A DNA stretch of 64,000 bases from Actinomycetes bacterium (lineage in GTDB: Bacteria > Actinomycetota > Thermoleophilia > RBG-16-64-13): the NCBI GenBank assembly GCA_021372435.1, contig JAJFUK010000110.1, forward strand, positions 9,022-73,021. The letters run 5' to 3'. Below are positions 3,833 to 64,000 of the stretch, one piece after another. Each line of letters opens with the position of its first letter. Position 1 is the first letter of the stretch. The notes under the pieces were generated by a model. That model had not been told where the DNA came from and did not search any database. It saw only the letters and a program-made list of their open reading frames with translations. The position numbers and the translations under genes were made by a program.

Positions 3833-5340
3833 GACTGCTCCTCGGCCAGACGGGCGACCAGCTCTCTGAAGTGGGCGCCCCGCTCTTCGAAGCCGGAGTA
3901 TTGATCGAAACTGGCGCAGGCGGGGGCCAGCAGCACGACATCGCCGGGCCCGGCGGTCCGGGCTGCCGCCCGGACGGCCCTCTCCAAGTCACCGCAAAGC
4001 CTGACCTCCGGCACCCCCGGCACGTTCTCAGTGATGCGCACCTCGGCAAAGGCCTGCTCGATCAGAGGAGTGGCCTCACCGATCAGGTAGACCGCCCTGC
4101 AGCCGTGGGCGCAAGCCCGGGCTACCGGGCGGTAATCAGAGCCCTTGTCCCGGCCTCCCAGGATGAGATGCGTGTTCTCCGGATAGGCGCTCAAGGCGGT
4201 GAGCGTCGCCTCCACGTTGGTAGCTTTGCTGTCGTTGACATACGTCACCCCGCCGACCATTCCTGCCGTCTCGAGCCGGTGTGCGACTCCGGCGAAGGTC
4301 CGCAGGCCTTCGGCCACGGCCTCCCTATCGACACCGCGGGCGAGGGCGGCGGTGCCCGCCGCCAGGCAGTTCTCCAGATTGTGCGTACCGGGAAGGCGGA
4401 TGTCGTTCACCGGTAGGAGGGGCTCTCCCTCGAGGAACATCCGGCCTCCTTCGACCCAGGAGCAGAGCGGCGGCCTCCCTCCCCGAGGGCGCGCGGCGCC
4501 GGCACCGGCGCCTGCTCCGGCCGCGCCCGGCCCGCGCGCGCCGGACCGGCTTCCATCGGACCCCCGGGCCGAGAACAACGCCACCCGGGGGCCGCCGGGC
4601 CGCGCGGCAAGTTCACGCCCCACCGCCTCTACCGCCGGATCGGCCGCGTTCAGAACCGCAACGTCCTCCCCGCGCTGGTTGGCGAAGAGCTTGGCTTTGC
4701 AGGCCAGGTAGCGTTCTAAGGTCCCGTGCCGGTCCAGGTGGTCGGGCGTGAGGTTGAGAAAGACGCCCACCACCGGCCGGAACGCGTGGACATCCTCGAG
4801 CTGGAAGCTCGAGGCCTCGACCACCAGCTCTTCACCCGCCGCCGTCTCGTCCGCGGCGGAGGTCACGGCCACTCCGATGTTGCCCAGCACGCGCGCCGGC
4901 CGCCCCGCGGTCTCGAAGAGATGGCCGAGCAGGGCGGTGGTCGTCGTCTTCCCATTGGTGCCGGTGATGGCGTCAAAGGGGTTGGGGATCAGCACCCACG
5001 CCAGCTCCAGCTCGCTCCATACAGGCACGTCCCGGGCCCGCGCGAGAACCACCGGCTCCGCTTCGCCGGGGACGCCCGGGCTCTTCACCACCAGGTCCGG
5101 CGCCGGCCAATCGCCGGCCAGAGACCCCTCGGACACGAACCGGGCCCCAGCGTCGAGCGCCTGCCGCAGACCGGGAACCGATCCCTCATCACGACGGTCG
5201 CTCACGGTGACATCGAACCCCAGCCGGGCCAGGGCCGTCGAAGCACCGACCCCCGAACGGCCGGCCCCCAAGACCAGCACCCGCCGGACTCCAGGCGGCA
5301 GACCTGCGCCTCCCCGCGCGAGAGATGACGACGCGTCCAC
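3829..5340 (-). CDS. murD: UDP-N-acetylmuramoylalanine--D-glutamate ligase
   Basis: Mur ligase with an N-terminal Rossmann region (RVLVLGAGRSGVGAS) and the GTNGKTTT P-loop. The ORF in the track starts at 5523 but overlaps mraY. The likely start is a GTG at 5340, 14 nt after the mraY stop with a GAGGG Shine-Dalgarno sequence. Contains a Gly/Ala-rich low-complexity insertion. Confidence 0.8.
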   Translation of the reverse strand: MDASSSLARGGAGLPPGVRRVLVLGAGRSGVGASTALARLGFDVTVSDRRDEGSVPGLRQALDAGARFVSEGSLAGDWPAPDLVVKSPGVPGEAEPVVLARARDVPVWSELELAWVLIPNPFDAITGTNGKTTTTALLGHLFETAGRPARVLGNIGVAVTSAADETAAGEELVVEASSFQLEDVHAFRPVVGVFLNLTPDHLDRHGTLERYLACKAKLFANQRGEDVAVLNAADPAVEAVGRELAARPGGPRVALFSARGSDGSRSGARGPGAAGAGAGAGAARPRGGRPPLCSWVEGGRMFLEGEPLLPVNDIRLPGTHNLENCLAAGTAALARGVDREAVAEGLRTFAGVAHRLETAGMVGGVTYVNDSKATNVEATLTALSAYPENTHLILGGRDKGSDYRPVARACAHGCRAVYLIGEATPLIEQAFAEVRITENVPGVPEVRLCGDLERAVRAAARTAGPGDVVLLAPACASFDQYSGFEERGAHFRELVARLAEEQS

Positions 5341-7824: not shown

Positions 7825-9446
7825 CGACGCTCCGCCAGCAGATCGCCCAGGGCCTCGCGGGCCACCTGGCGATCGTCAAAAGGCACCGTCTCGGTGGCGA
7901 ACTCCTGACCTGATTCGTGCCCTTTGCCGAGGATCATTACGACATCGCCCGCCGCAGCCGCTCTGAGGGCCGTCAAGATGGCCGACCTGCGGTCGGGCTG
8001 CACAGTCACGTCGGCCGGGGACTCAAGCCCTGCCACGATATCGGCGATTATCGCCGAAGGGTCCTCAGTCCGGGGATTATCCGAGGTTATGACCACCAGG
8101 TCGGCGGCCTTCTCGGCCTCTCTGCCCATGAGCGGCCGTTTGGTCTTGTCACGGTCGCCGCCGCAACCGAGCACGGCTATCAACTTTCCCTCAGTGATGC
8201 CCCGGGCCGTTTTCAGCACGTTGGCCACCGAGTCGGGAGTGTGGGCGTAGTCGACCAGCACGGTGAAGTCCTGCCCCGCATCCACGGATTCCATGCGGCC
8301 CGGCACCCCGCCGAAGTCCGCCACCGCCGCCAGCATCTGCTCCAGGTCGAGTCCCAATGCCAGCCCGATCCCCAGTGCGGTGAGAACGTTGGCCACGTTG
8401 AAGGCCCCCACCAGCCGCGTGAAGACCTCGACGCGCGCCTCCGCGGCGGCCGGGGCCGCGCCGGAGGCGCCGGCTCGGCCGGCCGGGTCGGCGGCCACCG
8501 CGCCGCCGCGCGCGACGCCACCCCGCTTACTCTGCCGAGCGTACGCGAGGGCCTTGCCCCGAAGGATCAGGGTACCGCGGGTGCCCCCGGCCCGCATGGA
8601 ATACTCGCTCCATTGGAGGTCGGCCGGGCCCCAATCGGGGACCACCGGCACAGTCGAAAGACTGAGCACCCGCTCCGGGGCGCATTGCTGGGCCAACCGT
8701 CTCCCGAAAGGATCGTCGACGTTGATGACCGCCATGGTGCTCTCAGGCGCGAACTCGGCATCGAGGAAGAGCCGTGTCTTCGCGGCGAAGTAGTCCTCGA
8801 GGCTCTTGTGATAGTCGAGGTGGTCCTGGGTGAGATTCGTGAACGCCACCGTCCGGAACCGGGTGCCTCTGGCCCGGCCCAAGTCCAGAGCATGTGAGGA
8901 GACCTCCATCACCGCGGCCTTGTCTCCGGCCGCCAACATCCCGGCAAGGTCACGCTGGATATCCAGGGCCTCAGGAGTGGTGCGGCCGGCCGGGAGAGTC
9001 CTGCCCCCGATCCGCCGTTCCACAGTGCCCAGAAGCCCGGCCGGCAGACCGGCCCGGTCGAGCAGATGCGCTGAAAGAAAAGCCGAGGTGGTCTTGCCGT
9101 TGGTGCCGGTGATGCCGACGGTCACGAGCTTCGAACTGGGATGGCCGTAGAAAGCCGCCGCCACCGGTCCCATGGCCGCCCGTACGGAGGGGACCACGAC
9201 CTGGGCCACCGGCAGGTCGAGCAGACGTTCGACGCAGACAGCGACCGCCCCCCGAGCGACGGCGGCGGCCGCGAAATCATGCCCGTCACGCGCGAAGCCG
9301 GGTACGCAGAAGAAAAGACAGCCGGGCCCGGCCTGGTCGCTCCGGTAAGCGAGTGAATCGATGGCGACATCCGCCGCGCCCGCCAGGCGCCGATCCTCGA
9401 CACCGGCGAAAAGGTCACTGAGTCTCACGCCGGGGGATTCTATCAT
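7821..9446 (-). CDS. murE: UDP-N-acetylmuramoyl-L-alanyl-D-glutamate--2,6-diaminopimelate ligase
   Basis: 541-aa Mur ligase (GITGTNGKTTSA P-loop, DYAHTPDS, DNPRTEDP). Confidence 0.9.
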   Translation of the reverse strand: MIESPGVRLSDLFAGVEDRRLAGAADVAIDSLAYRSDQAGPGCLFFCVPGFARDGHDFAAAAVARGAVAVCVERLLDLPVAQVVVPSVRAAMGPVAAAFYGHPSSKLVTVGITGTNGKTTSAFLSAHLLDRAGLPAGLLGTVERRIGGRTLPAGRTTPEALDIQRDLAGMLAAGDKAAVMEVSSHALDLGRARGTRFRTVAFTNLTQDHLDYHKSLEDYFAAKTRLFLDAEFAPESTMAVINVDDPFGRRLAQQCAPERVLSLSTVPVVPDWGPADLQWSEYSMRAGGTRGTLILRGKALAYARQSKRGGVARGGAVAADPAGRAGASGAAPAAAEARVEVFTRLVGAFNVANVLTALGIGLALGLDLEQMLAAVADFGGVPGRMESVDAGQDFTVLVDYAHTPDSVANVLKTARGITEGKLIAVLGCGGDRDKTKRPLMGREAEKAADLVVITSDNPRTEDPSAIIADIVAGLESPADVTVQPDRRSAILTALRAAAAGDVVMILGKGHESGQEFATETVPFDDRQVAREALGDLLAERR

Positions 9447-46704: not shown

Positions 46705-46784
46705 TGCGGGTGAGAGGACTCGAACCTCCACGTCAAAGACACATGATCCTAAATCATGCGCGTCTGCCATTCCGCCACACCCGC
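46705..46784 (-). tRNA. tRNA-Leu (anticodon TAG)
   Basis: Folds as a cloverleaf by hand: acceptor GCGGGTG/CACCCGC, D-arm GTGGCGGAAT-GGCAGACGC (Leu-type), anticodon loop TTTAGGA, long variable arm, T-loop GGTTCGAGTCC. CCA not encoded. Confidence 0.75.
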
Positions 46785-46796
46785 CGACTCCCGAGG

Positions 46797-46870
46797 GGTG
46801 AACGACGGGACTTGAACCCGCGACCGCTGGGGCCACAACCCAGTGCTCTACCAACTGAGCTACGTTCACC
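46797..46870 (-). tRNA. tRNA-His (anticodon GTG)
   Basis: Encoded G-1 opposite discriminator C73, anticodon loop TTGTGGC, T-loop GGTTCAAGTCC. Confidence 0.75.
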
Positions 46871-46910
46871 ACGTTCTCCACACCCCGGTAGCAAACCACC
46901 GGGCCCGAGA

Positions 46911-46984
<74 letters not shown>

Positions 46985-47023
46985 TCGTTCCTCCCGGCGG
47001 CAGTAGCGCACAGCCGCCGGAGG

Positions 47024-47096
<73 letters not shown>

Positions 47097-47126
47097 CTGC
47101 TCATGCCCTGCTGCTCCGCCGGACCA

Positions 47127-47203
47127 TGGTCGGGACGAGAGGATTCGAACCTCCGACCCCCTGCTCCCAAAGCAGGTGCGCTACCAGGCTGCGCCACGTC
47201 CCG
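47127..47203 (-). tRNA. tRNA-Pro (anticodon TGG), CCA encoded
   Basis: Acceptor CGGGACG/CGTCCCG, anticodon loop TTTGGGA, T-loop GGTTCGAATCC, followed by an encoded A-CCA. Confidence 0.75.
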
Positions 47204-53594: not shown

Positions 53595-53671
53595 TGGTCG
53601 GGGTGCCGGGATTTGAACCCGGGACCTCATCGTCCCGAACGATGCGCGCTACCAGGCTGCGCTACACCCCG
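53595..53671 (-). tRNA. tRNA-Pro (anticodon CGG), CCA encoded
   Basis: Acceptor CGGGGTG/CACCCCG, anticodon loop TTCGGGA, T-loop GGTTCAAATCC, encoded A-CCA tail. Confidence 0.75.
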
Positions 53672-56700: not shown

Positions 56701-57379
56701 ACGCCCGCAGCCGGTCCACATCGGCCTGCAGTGAGGAACCGGGGCGCGCCGACACCCGCACGGCCGCGAGCGCCCGGTCGATGGCCTCGACCAAGCGGTC
56801 GCGCGCCCACCCCGGCGGAGGTCCGGGAGCGATGGTCACCTGCGGTTGGTCGTAGCCCAGCCCACGCAGCCGGTCGTAGAGAGGCCCTATCTGCCTCCGC
56901 AGACCGTCCCGGCCGGAGGCCAGGACTTCGAGCTCCATCTCGTCGACGTCCTCGGCCACGCGCTCCCAGGCCTCCCGGCCGGTCTCTTGCTTGACCAGAG
57001 CGGCCGCCTCCGCCTCGAGCACCGAACAAGCCGGATCGACTCCCACCTCAAGCGCCCGGTCTGTGATCAAACGCCGGCAGAGAGCGTGGATCGTCCCGAT
57101 AGTGGCCGCGTCCAGAGACCAGGCCAAGTCGCTCCTCCCCCGAAGTCGAAGCTCGCAACGGATGCGATCGGCCAGTTCGGCGGCCGCCTTCCGGGTGAAG
57201 GTGACGGCCACCAGCCGGTCGGCCGGAATGCCCTCCTCGAGGAGGGCGCGGACGAAGTACGCCACGAGAAGCCGGGTCTTGCCGCTCCCTGCGGCGGCGG
57301 ACACCAGTATTCTCGGACGAGGGTCAAGCACCACCGGCTCCTGCGTCTTGGACAGTCTGGTGCCTTGCTCGCCGGTCAT
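53723..57379 (-). CDS. addA: AddA-like helicase-nuclease subunit (UvrD-family helicase plus C-terminal PD-(D/E)XK nuclease)
   Basis: N-terminal ILVSAAAGSGKTRLLV Walker A typical of AddA/RecB, with UvrD-like motifs throughout. C-terminal RecB-type nuclease (LSFSALAAYQRCPRRFYL ... IIDYKTN). ATG at 57379 overlaps the addB stop (ATGA). The track ORF begins at 57430. Confidence 0.8.
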   Translation of the reverse strand: MTGEQGTRLSKTQEPVVLDPRPRILVSAAAGSGKTRLLVAYFVRALLEEGIPADRLVAVTFTRKAAAELADRIRCELRLRGRSDLAWSLDAATIGTIHALCRRLITDRALEVGVDPACSVLEAEAAALVKQETGREAWERVAEDVDEMELEVLASGRDGLRRQIGPLYDRLRGLGYDQPQVTIAPGPPPGWARDRLVEAIDRALAAVRVSARPGSSLQADVDRLRACLQWLEGRMSDEERAARLAETLDFFPSRRTRSMEADFEPVREALTQYRSALAELRLRPLVSTVNRLLMEFHQRYEARKRERGMLDFTDLELRARALVSGRGGAGASDPVLPGCWVLIDEFQDTNEVQCSILEGLGATRLLMVGDYRQSIYRFRGADVQVFRKREEELGSKAADDPAGTLYRLDTNYRSRKEILDFVNRLFAHPSYFGADFKPLLPPDPEEEPAEATDITARPAPRPAPSTGGPATTTVYPGRAPSAPARPAVASRAGGAAVEVLVAERGVPTDPAKLLLSIPEAEARVVAARIRSLIHEEGYLQRDIVVLLPAYTYVDIYRRALLAAGLQVYVVRGKGYYAQEEVADIVSLLRLLVSPHDDLAMVAALRSPLVGISDDALYHLGRQKGKDGASLWDVVRSGKVAALGHEDRMLLEAFAVRLDGLRRRVGRPGLARLIDEAVSICAYDRCLLASPDGMRRFANVGKLMRMARDFEALEGPDLAGFVKLIASMGDLSDQEGSAPTLAEGDDVVRLMTIHQAKGLEFPVVVLAGLGSDVFHGETPDVVVGDDGRMAVFLKGSKRENYEAYDLSWGPGAEVVAQGRERENEEDVRLLYVAMTRAQQRLILIGARPVGERLDGSRIGRTIVGLGLQGLPAEGESATLDGLDAVVASIPVVGSGAPPAPARPQMKAGGAPDGEGRGMSAELPSEPPSESPSESPRESGPESSPEFLVAAPRAGVPHHLSFSALAAYQRCPRRFYLERMLGLDREGIERGDDDEADDAPPPGDLLLDPDERQTGRDVGLLTHALLERLPVGDGPPAEESVRREADAWLLQTGVELSPADVERAVALTLAFWKMPAAGTWSHPAAAREAHFFFARGDALLSGVMDLVLRDDECWRIIDYKTNALAGRAPAELMSSYELQAIVYCLAALLAGAPAVQMDFVFLEDPAEPQTRRFGRGDIPRLESSLDGVLGDLGRREFPARTSEECARCPVAWVCAAVARP

Positions 57380-60300
57380 GGACGATACTCCCCCCGCCGG
57401 GCGCGGCAGGCCGGCCCGAGCGGGCACCACGACGGGCAGGGCCGGTCGGCCCGCGGAGCGATGACCCCGGTCCGCATGCCTTCGGCGGCGTCAATAGCGG
57501 TCTGCACCGTGAGCCGAGACAGCTCCTCCAGGCCCGGCTCATCGAGCGACCTGATCCCGGCAGCCCCTGAGCCGAGCACCCACTCCGCCCCGGCCGCCAC
57601 CACGCCGGAGCGTTTCTTGTCGAACAATGAGAGGTACGCCCCGCCGATGACGCCCGCTCGGGGCCGCTCCGCGGCAAGGGCCAGCAGATACAGCGGCAAC
57701 TGCAGCGCTTCGCCCGTCCCTAAAGCCTTCGGCGGCGGGATGGCGCCCGTCTTGTAATCGAGGATGAACACCCCCGTGCCGTCGGGAGTGGCATCGACGC
57801 GATCGATGCGTCCCCGCACCCTGAGCCCGCCGATGTCCACGCCCCGGTTACCTCCCACCCACATCTCGGACTGCGAGAACGTCAGTGGGCCCGCGGCGGC
57901 GGCCTCCATATCGAAGAGGTTCCGCGCCATGCGCTTCAGCCTCCAGGCGGCCAGCCGCCGCTCTGAGAAGGAGCCCGGACACCGGTCTTCCCAGACGAGC
58001 CGGTCGACGACGTCGCACGCGACCTGCCCGGCCCGGCGGACGCCCGGCTCCCTTAGGGGCAGAAGACCTTCCGCCGACAGCGTGCGGTAGGTCTCGCTGA
58101 GCACATCGTGCAACAATCGCCCGATCATACGGCCGTCCAGTTCCAGATCGATATCCTCAGCTCCGACGACCCTCTCCACGAACCACCTGAAGGGGCAGTC
58201 CGCATACGCCTCGAGCGCCGATGGGTTGAAGCATCCGGTGGAGGCGAGCTCCTCCAAGACGGCCGGATCAGCCAGGCGGGAGGGCGGGCGGCCCCACGGC
58301 GGCACTGCCTCTCCGAATCCGAGCGCGACCACGGCCGGATGGGGCGCACACCCGTACGCGGCGCACGCCCTCAGGTAGTGCCGCAGTGACGGAGCTTTGT
58401 GGAGGGCGAAGACCTGGTCGGCCAGAGTGCGGTACTCGGGGAAGGACCCGTCGAGTCCCAGCAATCGTCTCGCCTCCTGCCAGTAAGGGGATGGGACGCT
58501 CTCCGTCCCGTCGTCCTCCGCGTCCCGCGCGCTGAGAAGAAGCAGGCGCCATGGCCGCGAGATGGCGCTGACGAAGAAGGCCGCCTCTTGGTCGGGTTCC
58601 GGGGGAAGAAGACCTCCTCCCGCCTCGTCGAGCCGTGCCCGTTGACCGGCGCTGAGCAGGGAAGGCCGGTCGGGGCTCCCCGGGAACTCCCCTTCGGCCA
58701 GACCCAGTATCACCACCGCCTGGAACCGGCGGGCGCGCGCTCTCTGCACGCTGAGTATCTGGACCGCATCATCGTCCTCAGAGCGTTCCCCGGGCACCGC
58801 CACACGGCCCAGGGAGTGCAGCACGAGCCGGGGATCGAGCCGGTCGGAGCGGCCGGCTTCTGCGCCGCCCACGTCCATCGAGGCGCCCAGCGACGCGAGG
58901 GATATCATCGTCCGCAACGCTCCCTGCAACGCCCGGAACACCCGCACATCCTCCGCCGCCGTCCGGTCGGTCAACCGGCAATCGTGCAGCCCGGCGATCA
59001 ACATGTCGTGAATCAGACTCCCGGCGGCCGCCGGCACGAACCACGGCCCGGCTCCCTCGGGGACCGCCGCCGGGGTGAGAACATGACCGCGAGCGACCTC
59101 CACTCCCGGCTCGCGGCCCACATCGGACCCGACGGCGACCCAATCGACCATCTTCCAGAGCCGCTCCACTCGACCCGAGCCTCCATCCGCGGCGATCCGC
59201 GCCACGGCCCGGGCGCCCCGCGCAGTCCCCCGCCGGTATGCGAGCTCCAGGTCACCCGTCTCCTCAAGGGAGAGACCGCTGTAGGGACTGCGCAGATAGG
59301 CCAGCAAAGCCTCGCCCTCGTCCAGGCTCACTCCCCGCAGCGCCTGCAGGAAGGCATGGCCGAGCCCCGTCTCGCGCACGCAGGGACGATCGTCCATGTG
59401 ATAGGGGATGCCGCACGACTCGAAGACATCCCCAAGAAGGCCGCTCCATGGGCGGACGTGCCGCACGATGACCGCAATCTGACCCGGTCTGCAGCCGCCC
59501 CTGATCAGGTCGGCGACCTTCTCTGCCGCCAGCTCCGCCTCGGCACGCCGGCCGGAGGCCAGAAGGAACCGGACTCCGTCATCCTTCGAGCACGCCGGCG
59601 CCGCCTCGCGCGCCGGCGGCCGGTCGGCCGCACACATGAAGTACCGCTCCAGATAAGCGACGGCCGCAGACGTGTAGGCGCGCTCCGGAGGCGCCACCTC
59701 CTTCACCTCGGAGGCCCTTGAGATCCACCAGGAGATCTCCCCCGGCGTGCTGAGATTGACGGCCCGGGAGCGATCATACGTGAACGTGACGAGCACCTCC
59801 GCCCGGCGGGACAGCGCCTCGACGAGAGCCCGTTGTCCGGCGGTGAAGGACGTGAAGCCGTAGAAGGCGACCGGTCTCTCCCAGGCGCCGGCGGCGGGTC
59901 TCGCTTCGCGCACGGCGACCGGGCGGTCGGTGAGGCCGAGGGCGGCGTAGATCTTCTCCTGAGCCCGGGCCAGCCGCCGGATATCGCCGGCCAAGGCGCC
60001 CGACCGGGGATCGCTCACCGCCCAACGGGCAAGGACGCGGTCGAGGTCATCACGGTCCCTGCCGCTTTGCCACAACTGCTCCAGCAGCTCGACGAGCCCC
60101 GTGACCACGCCCGGAAGGTGCATCGACGCGGAGAGGGCCTCGAGACGGGTCTCGCGAAGAATGCGGCCTGCGATCAGCGTGCGTTCTAGGTCGGTCGCGT
60201 AACGAGGGGACCGGCCCAGGACGAGGCGCACCAGGCCGTCGAAAGTGAGGGCCCGGTCTTGCCCGACCAATCCTCCGAGCCGCCCGGCCATCTCCAACGA

Positions 60301-60447
60301 GACCTGGTGCGCGTCGGGTCCCGTAGGAACCACCACCACAGGTCGCCGGGTAAGCCTCTCCTGCCACCAGTCGAGGACCAGCCCCTGCTTGCCGGAGTTG
60401 GCCGGACCTACAACGAGCGTCAGTCGCTTGGGAGACGATCCACTCAT
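57376..60447 (-). CDS. addB: AddB-like helicase-nuclease subunit (degenerate ATP-binding N-terminus plus Fe-S PD-(D/E)XK nuclease)
   Basis: The internal ATG at 60447 gives an N-terminus MSGSSPKRLTLVVGPANSGKQG (AddB-type Walker A). The 408 codons upstream are an open antisense overlap with the pafBC-like gene. C-terminal nuclease with an AddB-like four-Cys arrangement (CPFRWF ... CPSWCPLGPAC) and the DYKTG motif. Confidence 0.75.
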   Translation of the reverse strand: MSGSSPKRLTLVVGPANSGKQGLVLDWWQERLTRRPVVVVPTGPDAHQVSLEMAGRLGGLVGQDRALTFDGLVRLVLGRSPRYATDLERTLIAGRILRETRLEALSASMHLPGVVTGLVELLEQLWQSGRDRDDLDRVLARWAVSDPRSGALAGDIRRLARAQEKIYAALGLTDRPVAVREARPAAGAWERPVAFYGFTSFTAGQRALVEALSRRAEVLVTFTYDRSRAVNLSTPGEISWWISRASEVKEVAPPERAYTSAAVAYLERYFMCAADRPPAREAAPACSKDDGVRFLLASGRRAEAELAAEKVADLIRGGCRPGQIAVIVRHVRPWSGLLGDVFESCGIPYHMDDRPCVRETGLGHAFLQALRGVSLDEGEALLAYLRSPYSGLSLEETGDLELAYRRGTARGARAVARIAADGGSGRVERLWKMVDWVAVGSDVGREPGVEVARGHVLTPAAVPEGAGPWFVPAAAGSLIHDMLIAGLHDCRLTDRTAAEDVRVFRALQGALRTMISLASLGASMDVGGAEAGRSDRLDPRLVLHSLGRVAVPGERSEDDDAVQILSVQRARARRFQAVVILGLAEGEFPGSPDRPSLLSAGQRARLDEAGGGLLPPEPDQEAAFFVSAISRPWRLLLLSARDAEDDGTESVPSPYWQEARRLLGLDGSFPEYRTLADQVFALHKAPSLRHYLRACAAYGCAPHPAVVALGFGEAVPPWGRPPSRLADPAVLEELASTGCFNPSALEAYADCPFRWFVERVVGAEDIDLELDGRMIGRLLHDVLSETYRTLSAEGLLPLREPGVRRAGQVACDVVDRLVWEDRCPGSFSERRLAAWRLKRMARNLFDMEAAAAGPLTFSQSEMWVGGNRGVDIGGLRVRGRIDRVDATPDGTGVFILDYKTGAIPPPKALGTGEALQLPLYLLALAAERPRAGVIGGAYLSLFDKKRSGVVAAGAEWVLGSGAAGIRSLDEPGLEELSRLTVQTAIDAAEGMRTGVIAPRADRPCPSWCPLGPACRARRGEYRP

Positions 60448-60519
60448 GATTGGGCTTATTGTAGAGCCCCGTCCGGACGGATGCTGTCCATCACCCCGGT
60501 AGTGCGCTAGTCTTACGCC
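60448..60519. promoter_or_regulatory. Divergent promoter region between addB and the pafBC-like gene
   Basis: 72-bp spacer. On the minus strand a TACAAT hexamer sits about 10 nt upstream of the addB ATG. On the plus strand a TAGTCT hexamer ends 6 nt before the pafBC-like ATG, suggesting a leaderless transcript. A TGTCCATCAC element lies between them. Confidence 0.3.
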
Positions 60520-62661
60520 ATGAGCCGCGACGACGACAAGCTCATACGCCAGCTGTCCCTCATCTCGTTCCTCCTGAGCCGTCCGCGGCCGTTCACCGCG
60601 CGCGAGATCCAGGAGTCGGTGGAAGGCTATGCTGAGATGACCGACGAGACATTCACGCGCCGGTTCCACGCCGACCGCGCCGACCTGGCCAGGGTCGGCA
60701 TCCAAGTACGGGTGCTCAGTGGCTCGGAGGCGGCTTACTCCACCGAGGCCCAACTGTACCTGCTCAGCGAGGAGGACTTCCGTCTGCCCCTCGTGGACTT
60801 CACGCCGGCCGAGGTACAGGCCCTCTCCCTCGCGCTCGCGGCCCTGGACGGCCGCTTCGCGTACGCCCGCCCGCTGCGCATGGCGCTGACGGCCGTGTTG
60901 CACGGACGGCAAGACCCCATCCAGACTGAGCTTGAGCAGTTGCCCGTGGCTCTTGCCCCGGACGAGGACGCCCGCCGGGCCAGGCGCCAGCTCTCCCGCT
61001 TGGAGGAGGCGGTCACGAGAGGAAAGACGGTCTGCTTCTCCTACCCCGCGGGTGATGGCGGCCTGCGGGAACGCACGCTCGATCCCTACGGCCTCTACCT
61101 GATCCAAAGCCATTGGTACGTGGTCGGTCGCGACCATCTGCGCGACGGCATCCGGATGTTCCGCTTGGGCAGGATCCAAGGAGCCGTGCGCTTTCTTACC
61201 GACAAGGTCCGCGATTTCTCGATCCCCCCCGATTTCGACCCCGGCGAGTACGGCGCACGGCCGCCGTGGATGATCGGTCCTCTCCAGGGAACAGCCCTGG
61301 TCAAGGTCGGAGACGACCTCGCGTGGTGGGTCGAACGTCTGCGGCCCCATGTGACCCGCGCGGCCGATGAGCCGGAGGGGTGCGCGGTCTTCGCCATGCC
61401 GTACGCCGACGAATCGGTCTTCCTCTCGTGGGTAGTGGGCCTTGGCGGCTGTGGCGAGCTCTTGGAGCCCGATGGGCTGCGGGCCGGGTTGAGGGAGTCC
61501 CTCACCGCCATCTGCAGAGCGCACGAGGATGACGTTGAGAACGGCCACGGCGAAGTGACCGGGGCGGCCCATGAGGCAGCGGCCGGCGAGAGTCGCGGCG
61601 AGCAGGAGCCGGGCGGCCCTTCCGAAAAGCAGGAGCCCGAAGATCTGGAGGCCGCCATAGCTCCCGAGCACATAGCCCGCGCGATCACGCTCCTTTGTTA
61701 TCTGGTCGACGAACGACGGCCGCCTTTGATCACGTGGCAGACCCTGGAGAACGACCTAGGCCTCACCCGCGCCGAGGTCGAGCGCGACCTGTCCCTGATC
61801 AACCTCGTCAATTACGGCGGAGGGACGTTCGCCCTCATGGCTGAAGCCGGCCCCGAAGGGGTCAAGGTGGCGAGGGACATCATGGCCGACACGTTCGCCC
61901 ATCCTGCCCGGTTGTCACCGGGGATGGCCCGGGCGTTGCTTCTCGCCCTCGACCTCCTCGGCGACACCGTCGCGCTGGAGGGGCTCGAGTCGCTGTCGTC
62001 GGTCCGCGAGAAGGTCCACGCGCTCATCGGGGCCGAGAGCGCCGAGGGCGCCGTCATCGTCGACGAGGTCTTCCCGCCCGACCCAGGGATCGTGGAGGTC
62101 CTCAACCACGCCGTTCGCGACCGGTCGCTCGTCGCGCTCGATTACTACAGCGCCACCAGACAGGAGCTCTCCGAGCGGCGCGTGGAGCCGTATCTGCTCT
62201 TCCACTCGCCGGACGGCTGGTACTTAGAGGCCTACTGCCTCAAGGCGCAGGAGCAGCGTACGTTCAAGCTCGACCGCATCCGTTCCGCCCGCAGCACCGG
62301 GGAGACCTTCACGCCCCGCGCTGAGGTCGACCTCAGCCCACACAGGGCCGGCCGGGCCTTCCTCGAGCACGATGTGGCCACCTGGGCCACTGTGCGCTTC
62401 AGGCCTCGTTGGCGCACCTATCTTGAGGATTCGGGCCGGGAGTACACGCGCCGGACCGACGGCCACCTGGTCGTCAGGATGCCTTACGTGGACGAGCGCT
62501 GGATGGCGCACGAGGTCATCCGTTTTCTCGGGGACGCCGTGCTTGAAAGGCCGGCTTCGGCGCGGCGCAAGGTCGCCGAAGTCGCGCGCGCGCTGCTCAC
62601 CCGCTACCAGGAGGACCGCCCGGCCACCCGTCCGGCCGGCTCTCCTGGGGAGGTCCAGTGA
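60520..62661 (+). CDS. pafBC: Fused double HTH-WYL-WCX transcriptional regulator (PafBC-like)
   Basis: 713 aa with two successive modules. Each has an N-terminal winged HTH (LIRQLSLISFLLSRPRPFTAREI / ARAITLLCYLVDERRPPLITWQTL), a WYL domain (PYGLYLIQSHWYVVGRD / PYLLFHSPDGWYLEAYC) and a C-terminal extension. This matches naturally fused PafB-PafC proteins. Confidence 0.7.
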   Translation: MSRDDDKLIRQLSLISFLLSRPRPFTAREIQESVEGYAEMTDETFTRRFHADRADLARVGIQVRVLSGSEAAYSTEAQLYLLSEEDFRLPLVDFTPAEVQALSLALAALDGRFAYARPLRMALTAVLHGRQDPIQTELEQLPVALAPDEDARRARRQLSRLEEAVTRGKTVCFSYPAGDGGLRERTLDPYGLYLIQSHWYVVGRDHLRDGIRMFRLGRIQGAVRFLTDKVRDFSIPPDFDPGEYGARPPWMIGPLQGTALVKVGDDLAWWVERLRPHVTRAADEPEGCAVFAMPYADESVFLSWVVGLGGCGELLEPDGLRAGLRESLTAICRAHEDDVENGHGEVTGAAHEAAAGESRGEQEPGGPSEKQEPEDLEAAIAPEHIARAITLLCYLVDERRPPLITWQTLENDLGLTRAEVERDLSLINLVNYGGGTFALMAEAGPEGVKVARDIMADTFAHPARLSPGMARALLLALDLLGDTVALEGLESLSSVREKVHALIGAESAEGAVIVDEVFPPDPGIVEVLNHAVRDRSLVALDYYSATRQELSERRVEPYLLFHSPDGWYLEAYCLKAQEQRTFKLDRIRSARSTGETFTPRAEVDLSPHRAGRAFLEHDVATWATVRFRPRWRTYLEDSGREYTRRTDGHLVVRMPYVDERWMAHEVIRFLGDAVLERPASARRKVAEVARALLTRYQEDRPATRPAGSPGEVQ

Positions 62662-63104
62662 AAGGCCTGGCCCGCTGGGTGGCGGACTCCCTGGGCTTCT
62701 ATCTCGCCCTCTATCTCGTGGATTCGTTGATATCGCCGCGCTTCCATGTGGGCGCGGTGTGGATGGCGGTGGTACTTGCCGTCTTCCTCGGGCTGGTGAA
62801 CAGCCTGGTCCGCCCTCTCCATCGGGTGAAGAGCAAACCGGCCGTGGCCATCGGTAAGGCGGTGTCGACCGTCCTCTTCAACGCGCTCGTGCTCCAGATC
62901 GCGATCTGGGCAGGAGCACCCCTGGCGGCGACCGGCCCGGTCTGGGTCCTGGTCATGGCGACGTTCTTGACATTCCTCGGCGGCCTCATGAACTGGCTGA
63001 TCGGCTTCAAGAAGAAGGAGAAGCCGGGTGCGCCCGCGCGTGAACGCCGGGCCGCGCGCGCGTCGGCCCCCCGTGAGGTCGGGACGTCGCGGAAGCAGAC
63101 CTAG
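62658..63104 (+). CDS. Small polytopic membrane protein, holin-superfamily-IV-like (PF04020-type)
   Basis: GTG overlaps the pafBC-like stop (GTGA). 148 aa with 3-4 TM helices, an LVNSLVRPL motif like the 4-TM 'phage holin 4_2' family, and a basic C-terminal tail. Confidence 0.5.
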   Translation: MKGLARWVADSLGFYLALYLVDSLISPRFHVGAVWMAVVLAVFLGLVNSLVRPLHRVKSKPAVAIGKAVSTVLFNALVLQIAIWAGAPLAATGPVWVLVMATFLTFLGGLMNWLIGFKKKEKPGAPARERRAARASAPREVGTSRKQT

Positions 63105-63265
63105 AGGCTGCTGAAAAACGACGCTGCGTCGTCAGCGCGATGGCTGCGGGCGAGAGAAGAACGCAGGAAGCGCGAATAGCAGCGCTACTTGCGCGACCGA
63201 GGACGCTCTGTCGCGCCGGCCGGTGTGTCTTGGCGGCCGTGGCTTCGTTTTTCAGCAGCCTCTAG
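63101..63265. repeat. 165-bp element bounded by perfect 20-bp inverted repeats
   Basis: CTAGAGGCTGCTGAAAAACG at 63101..63120 and its exact reverse complement at 63246..63265, separated by 125 bp that contains smaller palindromes. Lower GC than its surroundings. Lies between the convergent holin-like and pilT genes. The left arm includes the holin-like gene's TAG stop. Confidence 0.5.
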
Positions 63266-63282
63266 CGAGACTCCCCGGCTTC

Positions 63283-64000
63283 CTAGTCGATGACCGCCAT
63301 CTCGTGGCCTCGGGCCTGGGCCATCAGCCGGAAATCATGGGGGTTGCTGGCCACCAGATAGGCGTCTGTAAGCGTGACCATTCCCCTCTCGAACAGATCG
63401 AGCAGGCTCTGATCGAACGTCTGCATGCCGTAGAAATCGCCCTCCTGCATGGCAGTGTGGATGTGGTGGGTCTGCTGAGGATCGAGGATCAGGTCGCGTA
63501 TGCGGCCCGTCACCACCATCACTTCCACCGCCGGCACCCGCCCCAGCCCGTCCGAGCGCGTCAGCAACCGCTGGGAGATGATGCCGCGCAGCGAGCCGGC
63601 CAGCATGATGCGCACCTGCTTTTGCTGATACAGCGGGAAGAAGTCGATGATGCGGTTGACGGTCTCGGTCGCGTCGATGGTGTGAAGCGTACTGAGGACG
63701 AAGTGCCCGGTCTGAGCGGCGCTCAGAGCCGTGCGCACCGTCTCTTGGTCCCGCATCTCGCCGATGAAGATGATGTCGGGATCTTGCCTGAGCACGTACT
63801 TGAGGGCCGAACCATAGTTCTCCGTGTCGAGCCCCACCTCGCGCTGGTTGATTATGCACATCTGGTCCCTGTGGAGGATCTCGATAGGATCCTCGACGGT
63901 GACGATATGCCGGCGGAGATGATGGTTGATGTGGTCGATCATCGCCGCCAGCGTGGTGGTCTTGCCTGAGCCGGTCGTCCCGGTGACGAGCACCATCCCT
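63283..64000 (-). CDS. pilT: Type IV pilus retraction ATPase PilT/PilU (C-terminal part; the N-terminus is beyond the window)
   Basis: LVTGTTGSGKTTTLAAMIDHIN Walker A, VEDPIE, GEMRD and TGHFVLSTLHT motifs of the PilT family. The ORF is open at the window edge. Confidence 0.85.
   Translation of the reverse strand, partial: GMVLVTGTTGSGKTTTLAAMIDHINHHLRRHIVTVEDPIEILHRDQMCIINQREVGLDTENYGSALKYVLRQDPDIIFIGEMRDQETVRTALSAAQTGHFVLSTLHTIDATETVNRIIDFFPLYQQKQVRIMLAGSLRGIISQRLLTRSDGLGRVPAVEVMVVTGRIRDLILDPQQTHHIHTAMQEGDFYGMQTFDQSLLDLFERGMVTLTDAYLVASNPHDFRLMAQARGHEMAVID

Follow-up and report, generated by a model that had tools for sequence, protein, structure and literature searches.

A probable MITE with IS5-family termini at a convergent gene junction of a Thermoleophilia-like actinobacterium

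The locus considered here lies towards the right end of a 64-kb stretch of actinobacterial DNA, which was analysed as a whole and is referred to as the window. A gene for a WYL-type protein and a gene for a holin-like membrane protein follow each other on the plus strand, and the 3′ part of a PilT-type ATPase gene runs towards them from the right (Table 1). The gap between the latter two genes had been described as convergent in the first-pass annotation, and the minus-strand T2SSE/PilT-type ATPase gene indeed faces the plus-strand holin-like gene. No exact record of the holin-like protein was returned in the look-up, and the named homologs of the WYL protein belong to Thermoleophilia and Actinobacteria MAGs, by which the host was recognised as Thermoleophilia-like.

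Table 1. Coordinates of the genes and sequence features at the junction (window numbering)
Feature	Positions	Strand	Basis or remark
WYL/WCX/HTH_PafC protein gene	60520–62661	+	713 aa; upstream of holin-like gene; Pfam
Phage_holin_4_2 (DUF360-type) membrane protein gene	62658–63104	+	148 aa; stop inside left CTAG; Pfam match
Left CTAG, candidate 4-bp target-site duplication (YTAR target)	63101–63104		direct repeat of 63262–63265; holds the TAG stop of the holin-like gene
Left terminal inverted repeat AGGCTGCTGAAAAACG	63105–63120		repeat finder; 16 bp without CTAG
Terminator-like site	63111–63138	-	6-bp hairpin 63138–63121, then CGUUUUUCAG 63120–63111; consensus scan
Interior, 125 bp, GC 0.68	63121–63245		non-coding, imperfectly self-complementary, rod-like
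Nested short palindrome GCGCGACCGAG / CTCTGTCGCGC	63191–63216		repeat finder
Right terminal inverted repeat CGTTTTTCAGCAGCCT	63246–63261		repeat finder
Right CTAG, second candidate duplication copy	63262–63265		direct repeat of left CTAG
Spacer, 17 bp	63266–63282		whole intergenic gap once element and one CTAG are removed
PilT/T2SSE-type ATPase gene, 3′ part	63283–63996	-	runs off window end

Perfect 20-bp terminal inverted repeats had been proposed for the gap, and the repeat analysis recovered them with the same sequence and coordinates. The left arm, CTAGAGGCTGCTGAAAAACG, occupies 63101–63120 and its exact reverse complement 63246–63265, with 125 bp between the arms, and the complementarity reaches 24 nt at 96%. 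By chance, about 2e-5 perfect 20-bp inverted pairs less than 400 nt apart are expected in 64 kb; the inverted repeat is not due to chance. With up to three mismatches allowed, CTAGAGGCTGCTGAAAAACG has no further match in the 64 kb, nor did 100 shuffles produce one. Both arms contain CTAG (at 63101 and 63262), and the left arm overlaps the stop codon of the Phage_holin_4_2-type ORF, whose TAG lies at 63102–63104, as had been noted earlier for both features. The nested palindromes mentioned there are represented by one pair (63191–63201/63206–63216). Conversely, the claim of an interior with lower GC than average did not survive: the window averages 0.664 and the 125 bp reach 0.68, so that a lower value (0.50) is seen in the arms alone. 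The element measures 157 bp without the CTAG copies and 165 bp with both of them. Between the arms the sole ORF is a 41-codon frame (63140–63265), and tblastn with the family transposase described below gave no match anywhere in the 64-kb window. As neither a transposase nor other coding capacity is present beyond this frame, the element is without means of autonomous movement. CTAG is about 6-fold under-represented in the window: base composition predicts 198 occurrences, and 31 were counted. Three of these lie at this junction (63101, 63262 and 63283), including the stops of both convergent genes.

The termini of the element recur at the ends of full-length insertion sequences of about 1.26–1.31 kb that encode an IS5-family DDE transposase. 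On contig L204, the arms are 1261 bp apart, and the element is bounded by GAGGCTGCTGAAAAAC...GTTTTTCAGCAGCCTC. The 356-aa ORF of this IS reaches 244.8 bits with the NCBIfam model NF033581 (IS5 family transposase; cutoff 140) and also matches Pfam DUF772 and DDE_Tnp_1. Window positions 63104–63122 (GAGGCTGCTGAAAAACGAC) are identical to one end of the L204 IS (89–107, 19/19 nt), and positions 63241–63264 (GGCTTCGTTTTTCAGCAGCCTCTA versus GGCTTTG...) agree with 1328–1351 at 23 of 24 nt, so that the two ends of the window element match two different ends of the same IS. Read together with G63104, the left repeat gives GAGGCTGCTGAAAAACG, which is the tip form of the family. Ten further fetched contigs (L253–L262) carry the identical transposase and ends, and diverged transposases of 49–66% identity lie between similar ends on L193, L139, L263 and L264. 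Metagenomes contain this transposase family very commonly. Nearly all of its carrier contigs are 1.2–2 kb long, as expected of an assembly-breaking repeat, and many contigs in assemblies from soil, peat and sediment therefore probably end at such elements.

The closest annotated and named relative is ISAzs10 of Azospirillum sp. B510, with 54% amino-acid identity; the annotation of the closest homolog reads “IS5-like element ISAzs10 family transposase”. ISAzs10 is 1307 bp long, has the ends CAGGCCGCGGAAAAAGG / CAGGACGCGGAAAAAGG (CAGG...GGAAAAAGG) and has TTAG on either flank, and a Thiolapillus copy shows CAGG..GAAAA ends with a TTAG duplication. ISAzs10 and the window element share the terminal motif (C/G)AGG-N6-G-AAAAA (CAGGCCGCGGAAAAAGG compared to (G)AGGCTGCTGAAAAACG) as well as 4-bp flanking repeats of the YTAR type, TTAG in the former and, as a candidate duplication, the palindromic CTAG in the latter. 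The termini of the uncultured IS5 relatives, L204 and others, are identical to those of the window element. Unlike ISAzs10, however, the window element has no transposase gene, is 157 bp long rather than ~1.26–1.31 kb, and has an unrelated, self-complementary interior. Two other assignments were rejected. An IS630/Tc1-mariner origin, with a TA duplication within CTAG and the Tc1-like CAGTGCTGGCCAAAAAG, is contradicted by the IS5-family transposase of the partner and by the 4-bp duplications of the family, and on inspection the ends do not fit the RYYYAAC/GTTRRRY consensus of an integron attC site.

Besides the full-length ISs, dozens of elements of 75–180 bp are bounded by the common termini (C/G)AGGCTGCTGAAAAAC; they lie on contigs from soil, peat and sediment and in MAGs of Acidobacteriota. 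When metagenomes were scanned with the 18-mer TAGAGGCTGCTGAAAAAC, at least 120 loci matched. Over the metagenome matches listed, GTDB and the IMG/VR sequence L011, at least some 35 distinct 75–180-bp elements with both arms were found, mostly on contigs of 55–66% GC. The matches of a 15-mer scan of IMG/VR are nearly all single and due to chance, L011 being the only genuine element. When one genome per GTDB species was scanned with the 20-mer, five loci were obtained, none of them in the source genome of the window. In two of these, the Acidobacteriota MAGs L002 and L005, the arm is followed ~90–110 nt on by a degenerate inverted copy, the interior being unrelated, and L005 carries a second element copy 2.3 kb away (two in 8 kb). 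The single arms in L001 (Chloroflexia MAG), L003 (Alteromonas) and L004 (Enterococcus) were set aside as chance matches or remnants. No partner arm lies within ~220 nt in L001 and L004, and none was found on the checkable side in L003, where the locus ends 55 nt past the arm on the other side. In L001, the exact 20-mer occurs once (4913–4932) and codes for the C-terminal ...AFFSSL* of an ORF resembling esterases, which is directly adjoined by a convergent gene. Either the match is fortuitous or the coding end has taken up a remnant of an element.

Among the matches listed, the interiors of the family fall into several mutually unrelated subfamilies, none of which resembles that of the window element. 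No homolog of the window interior was detected in the fetched loci (including the full-length ISs), in the rest of the window or in PLSDB plasmids, and in the literature the arm sequence returned only unrelated primer matches. Family members also occur next to and within each other. L153 holds a tandem pair (8482–8763), a full IS on L193 is directly followed by a short element (554–2004), and in L166/L170 the hairpin of one element contains a second one with a clean TTTA duplication. The window element belongs to an unnamed IS5-type family of MITEs and ISs with the termini (C/G)AGGCTGCTGAAAAAC. The hosts found for family members, among the matches listed, are Acidobacteriota MAGs and metagenome contigs without a taxon, and no cognate IS was seen in an actinobacterial genome; a cluster look-up of the transposases gave no taxon names. 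The host range, i.e. Acidobacteriota MAGs together with the Thermoleophilia-like actinobacterial sequence, points to a transfer of the parent IS between phyla.

The flanks of the elements are informative as well. IS5 elements use YTAR as target and produce a 4-bp duplication (PMC5009759). At least 14 short elements among the matches listed have perfect 4-bp direct repeats just outside their (C/G)AGG...CCT(C/G) tips, with the sequences TTTA, TAAA, TCTA, GATA (twice), CATA and TTAA. Many short family members show NNTA duplications (e.g. TTTA, GATA and CATA), compared to TTAG in ISAzs10 and the Thiolapillus copy. The first-pass annotation had advised looking for target-site duplications beside the arms of the window element, and CTAG, which is palindromic, is present on both sides. 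With GAGG...CCTC as the tip, the form of most family members, the adjoining direct repeat is only TA, whereas AGG...CCT as the tip gives CTAG-AGG...CCT-CTAG and thereby a 4-bp YTAR repeat. Because CTAG is palindromic, a duplication and four extra base pairs of inverted repeat are indistinguishable at this position.

A further regularity was noted in the surroundings of the relatives. On every contig, the 1261-bp IS sits inside GCACAGGC-(ATTTA/ATTCA/TGAAT/TAAAT)-GCCTGTGC (L204 1–1857; L253–L262). Complementary sequence of at least 4 bp just outside the 4-bp flank was found in 8 of 33 short elements versus 4.7% in a flank-swapped control, and hairpin-loop sites are apparent in the flanks of L143, L151, L171, L185, L195, L201 and L227. 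This pattern of flanking sequence suggests that small GC-rich hairpin loops are a preferred target of this IS5 clade. For the window copy, no hairpin-loop flank was seen. The left and right flank pairs of the 1.5-kb IS contigs were discarded as evidence for the length of the duplication, as the loop variants ATTTA, ATTCA, TGAAT and TAAAT are mixed, probably due to assembly chimerism at the repeat.

Four relatives (L247–L250), whose WYL proteins are 70–75% identical to that of the window, keep the order WYL, holin-like and convergent pilT. Orthologs of the holin-like protein with 148–153 aa are found at the same position in all four, and full-length PilT orthologs of 362 aa in L247–L249. The distance between the holin-like gene and pilT is 66 bp in L247, –4 bp in L248, 82 bp in L249 and –11 bp in L250. 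The arm motif is absent from these gaps and was not found in the ~40 kb of sequence from relatives. The holin-like gene of L248 ends in ...GGACCTAG (...GACCTAG) with the CTAG target intact, and this CTAG also contains the stop of pilT on the opposite strand. The holin-like gene of the window ends in ...CAGACCTAG, and a 17-bp gap is left if the element and one CTAG are deleted; a precise empty site would read ...CAGACCTAG joined straight to CGAGACTCCCC. At 70–75% identity, the four relatives tell that the element is missing but do not provide a precise empty site, and the 99%-identical contig L246 (JGI 3300026155) ends in the holin gene, ~150 bp short of the element.

As an alternative, the hairpin could be native to the convergent junction, having evolved there as a large intrinsic terminator or attenuator for both directions, and not be mobile DNA. 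Its position between convergent genes and the A5 and U5 tracts around a very stable hairpin speak for this proposal, and the consensus scan flagged a hairpin with U-tract on the minus strand. Still, it is missing from the same junction in the four relatives, and in two of these the stop codons overlap, which leaves no spacer. Moreover, its outer 16–19 nt are identical to the ends of an IS5-family IS and of many unrelated short elements in other phyla, and the 13 bp lying outside the A/U tracts play no part in a terminator. A native origin as terminator is accordingly rated as highly improbable.

The 165 nt fold into a single long imperfect rod, with –101.3 kcal/mol for the plus strand (z –7.9) and –85.9 kcal/mol for the minus strand (z –6.9). 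Folding of both strands had been recommended earlier, and the plus strand is the more stable one by 15 kcal/mol. When the halves of the element are aligned end to end, 55 matches face 14 transition and 10 transversion mismatches over ~80 positions. The difference in energy is a consequence of the distribution of the transitions, ten of which give G·U on the plus strand versus four on the minus strand. We considered and dismissed this wobble-pair asymmetry as a sign of selection at the RNA level, as 10 versus 4 is insignificant and the family members are without consistent bias.

The fold is also the main argument for a structured small RNA gene, i.e. a 6S-like rod, an antisense RNA or a processing substrate with the 20-bp repeat as closing stem, which had been among the initial suggestions. 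The very stable structure, its preference for the plus strand by 15 kcal/mol and the ten G·U-type versus four opposite-type transition mismatches would be in keeping with such a gene. With Rfam gathering thresholds, however, the whole window yielded only tRNAs elsewhere and nothing at the element. Permissive thresholds on 62000–64000 gave nothing relevant, the best match being Bp1_781 with 20.5 bits versus a gathering value of 80 (E = 0.013); this single sub-threshold match corresponds to a terminator-like segment. The consensus scan of the element found no promoter-like site, the orthologous locus shows no conservation of the sequence, and the interiors of the family are unrelated, so that covariation cannot be assembled. 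Since the strand asymmetry is insignificant as well, the suggestion of a small RNA was abandoned as extremely improbable.

A role in transcription termination is a different matter from a terminator origin. A5/T5 is located at the inner edge of each terminus and adjoins the interior hairpin. The long interior hairpin is followed by U5 on both strands, with the plus-strand tract at T63248–63252 and the minus-strand counterpart opposite A63114–63118. As a transcript of either strand would contain the hairpin and then U5, a terminator side effect is possible. From this layout, a function as bidirectional terminator or RNA-stabilising 3′ structure for both convergent genes appears plausible. The scan picked up a compact hairpin with U-tract on the minus strand only, and the stem of the element is far longer than that of a usual terminator. 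A terminator-like layout has also been discussed for the SPRITE MITE (PMC10969869). Termination may thus be a by-product of the A5/hairpin/U5 arrangement; as the source of the element, which the first-pass annotation had considered, it was not upheld.

The suggestion of a MITE-like element, by contrast, gains support from the IS5-family termini, from the short elements that share these termini and carry duplications, and from the absence of the element in four relatives of the same gene order. The element is small and free of a transposase gene; its terminal inverted repeats match those of an autonomous IS and are common to autonomous IS5 elements and many short ones, family members have duplications, and the orthologous sites are devoid of it. 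The partner IS encodes a DDE transposase (DUF772 and DDE_Tnp_1), in agreement with the IS5 family. We conclude that the 165-bp unit is very probably a non-autonomous derivative of, or a passenger on, an IS5-family IS, that is, a MITE. With equally high confidence, the 16–17-bp terminal inverted repeats (G)AGGCTGCTGAAAAAC(G) carried by the 157-bp element are assigned to that IS.

Counting against a MITE, the 64-kb window has a single copy, and the ~40 kb from relatives have none. The failure to see a cognate IS in actinobacterial genomes, the direct repeat of only TA with the usual tip and the moderate identity of the nearest relatives weigh in the same direction. The single copy in the window could also be explained by a remnant formed in situ, i.e. 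a full-length IS5-family IS that lost its transposase gene by internal deletion and never moved as a short unit. For a few bases past the inverted repeat, each end of the element resembles a different end of the L204 IS, as it would in a deletion derivative. No similarity was detected, however, between the interior and those of the fetched full-length ISs. The halves of the interior are complementary throughout, whereas the subterminal regions of the L204 IS are not complementary beyond 16 nt. Dozens of short elements of similar size and with the same ends exist elsewhere, and a deletion remnant is therefore regarded as improbable.

For the MITE, the insertion may be pictured as starting with an IS5-type DDE transposase provided in trans. 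This enzyme would bind both termini and excise the element, which would integrate into a CTAG (YTAR target) that holds the stop of the holin-like gene, and repair of the staggered cut would duplicate this CTAG. With CTAG duplicated in this way, the left copy would go on providing the TAG stop codon, and the protein would remain the same. We infer mobilisation in trans, CTAG as a duplication and not as part of the repeat, as well as the timing and source of the insertion. With a stop codon regenerated by the duplication, a CTAG target would admit an element into a tight convergent junction and leave both genes undamaged.

The element is similar to known bacterial MITEs such as MITEAba12 of Acinetobacter, the Correia elements of Neisseria and RUP/SPRITE of S. 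pneumoniae. These are likewise ~100–200 bp long and non-coding, with inverted repeats that match a resident IS. They have target-site duplications, are located between genes and form stable RNA hairpins; in the window element, the CTAG flanks are palindromic. MITEAba12 is reported to match its parent IS solely within the inverted repeats (PMC6382973), which is a precedent for an element that shares no more than the termini with its parent. The known MITEs differ in that their sequences are unrelated and that the host of the window element is an uncultured Thermoleophilia-like actinobacterium. The duplication of MITEAba12 is 9 bp, compared to the 4-bp candidate of IS5-group type in the window.

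REP/BIME sequences are intergenic palindromic repeats like the window element, and some family members elsewhere are tandem or nested and lie beside small GC-rich hairpins. Their partner is a RAYT of the IS200/IS605 type (Y1 HUH), whereas the partner of the window-type elements is a DDE transposase of the IS5 family. The window-type elements have true terminal inverted repeats and target duplications, and lack a GTAG-type guide tetranucleotide beside a 20–35-nt hairpin. An assignment to the REP/BIME class was rejected on account of the 157-bp size, the terminal inverted repeats and the DDE IS5-family partner, compared to the 20–40-nt palindrome, conserved 5′ tetranucleotide and RAYT of REP.

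The kind of element found in the window is already known, and an unnamed MITE/IS5 family is documented here. The 165-bp palindrome with its perfect arms is ordinary mobile DNA in this assignment and drops off the list of candidate new RNA or regulatory elements. A far more speculative proposal, which we regard as rather doubtful, is that the IS5 clade and its MITE family form an undescribed superfamily across phyla (Acidobacteriota and Actinomycetota) that would target small GC-rich hairpin loops and deliver bidirectional A5-hairpin-U5 terminators, with the window copy being an exapted terminator for the holin-like gene and pilT.

Three minor observations concern other parts of the window. The mechanical ORF list contains a 1431-aa ORF on the minus strand (57376–61671) that overlaps the plus-strand WYL gene (60520–62661) by ~1.1 kb. 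As the PDDEXK_1 (AddB-like) gene of the relatives encodes 1012 aa and does not reach into the WYL gene, the long N-terminal extension of this ORF is probably a high-GC artefact. Five tRNA genes are clustered within 500 bp on the minus strand (46705–47203), and one more is located 6.4 kb off at 53598–53671. The longest inverted repeat reported by the repeat finder is an overlapping GC-rich palindrome at 8443–8518 (43 nt, 74% complementarity).
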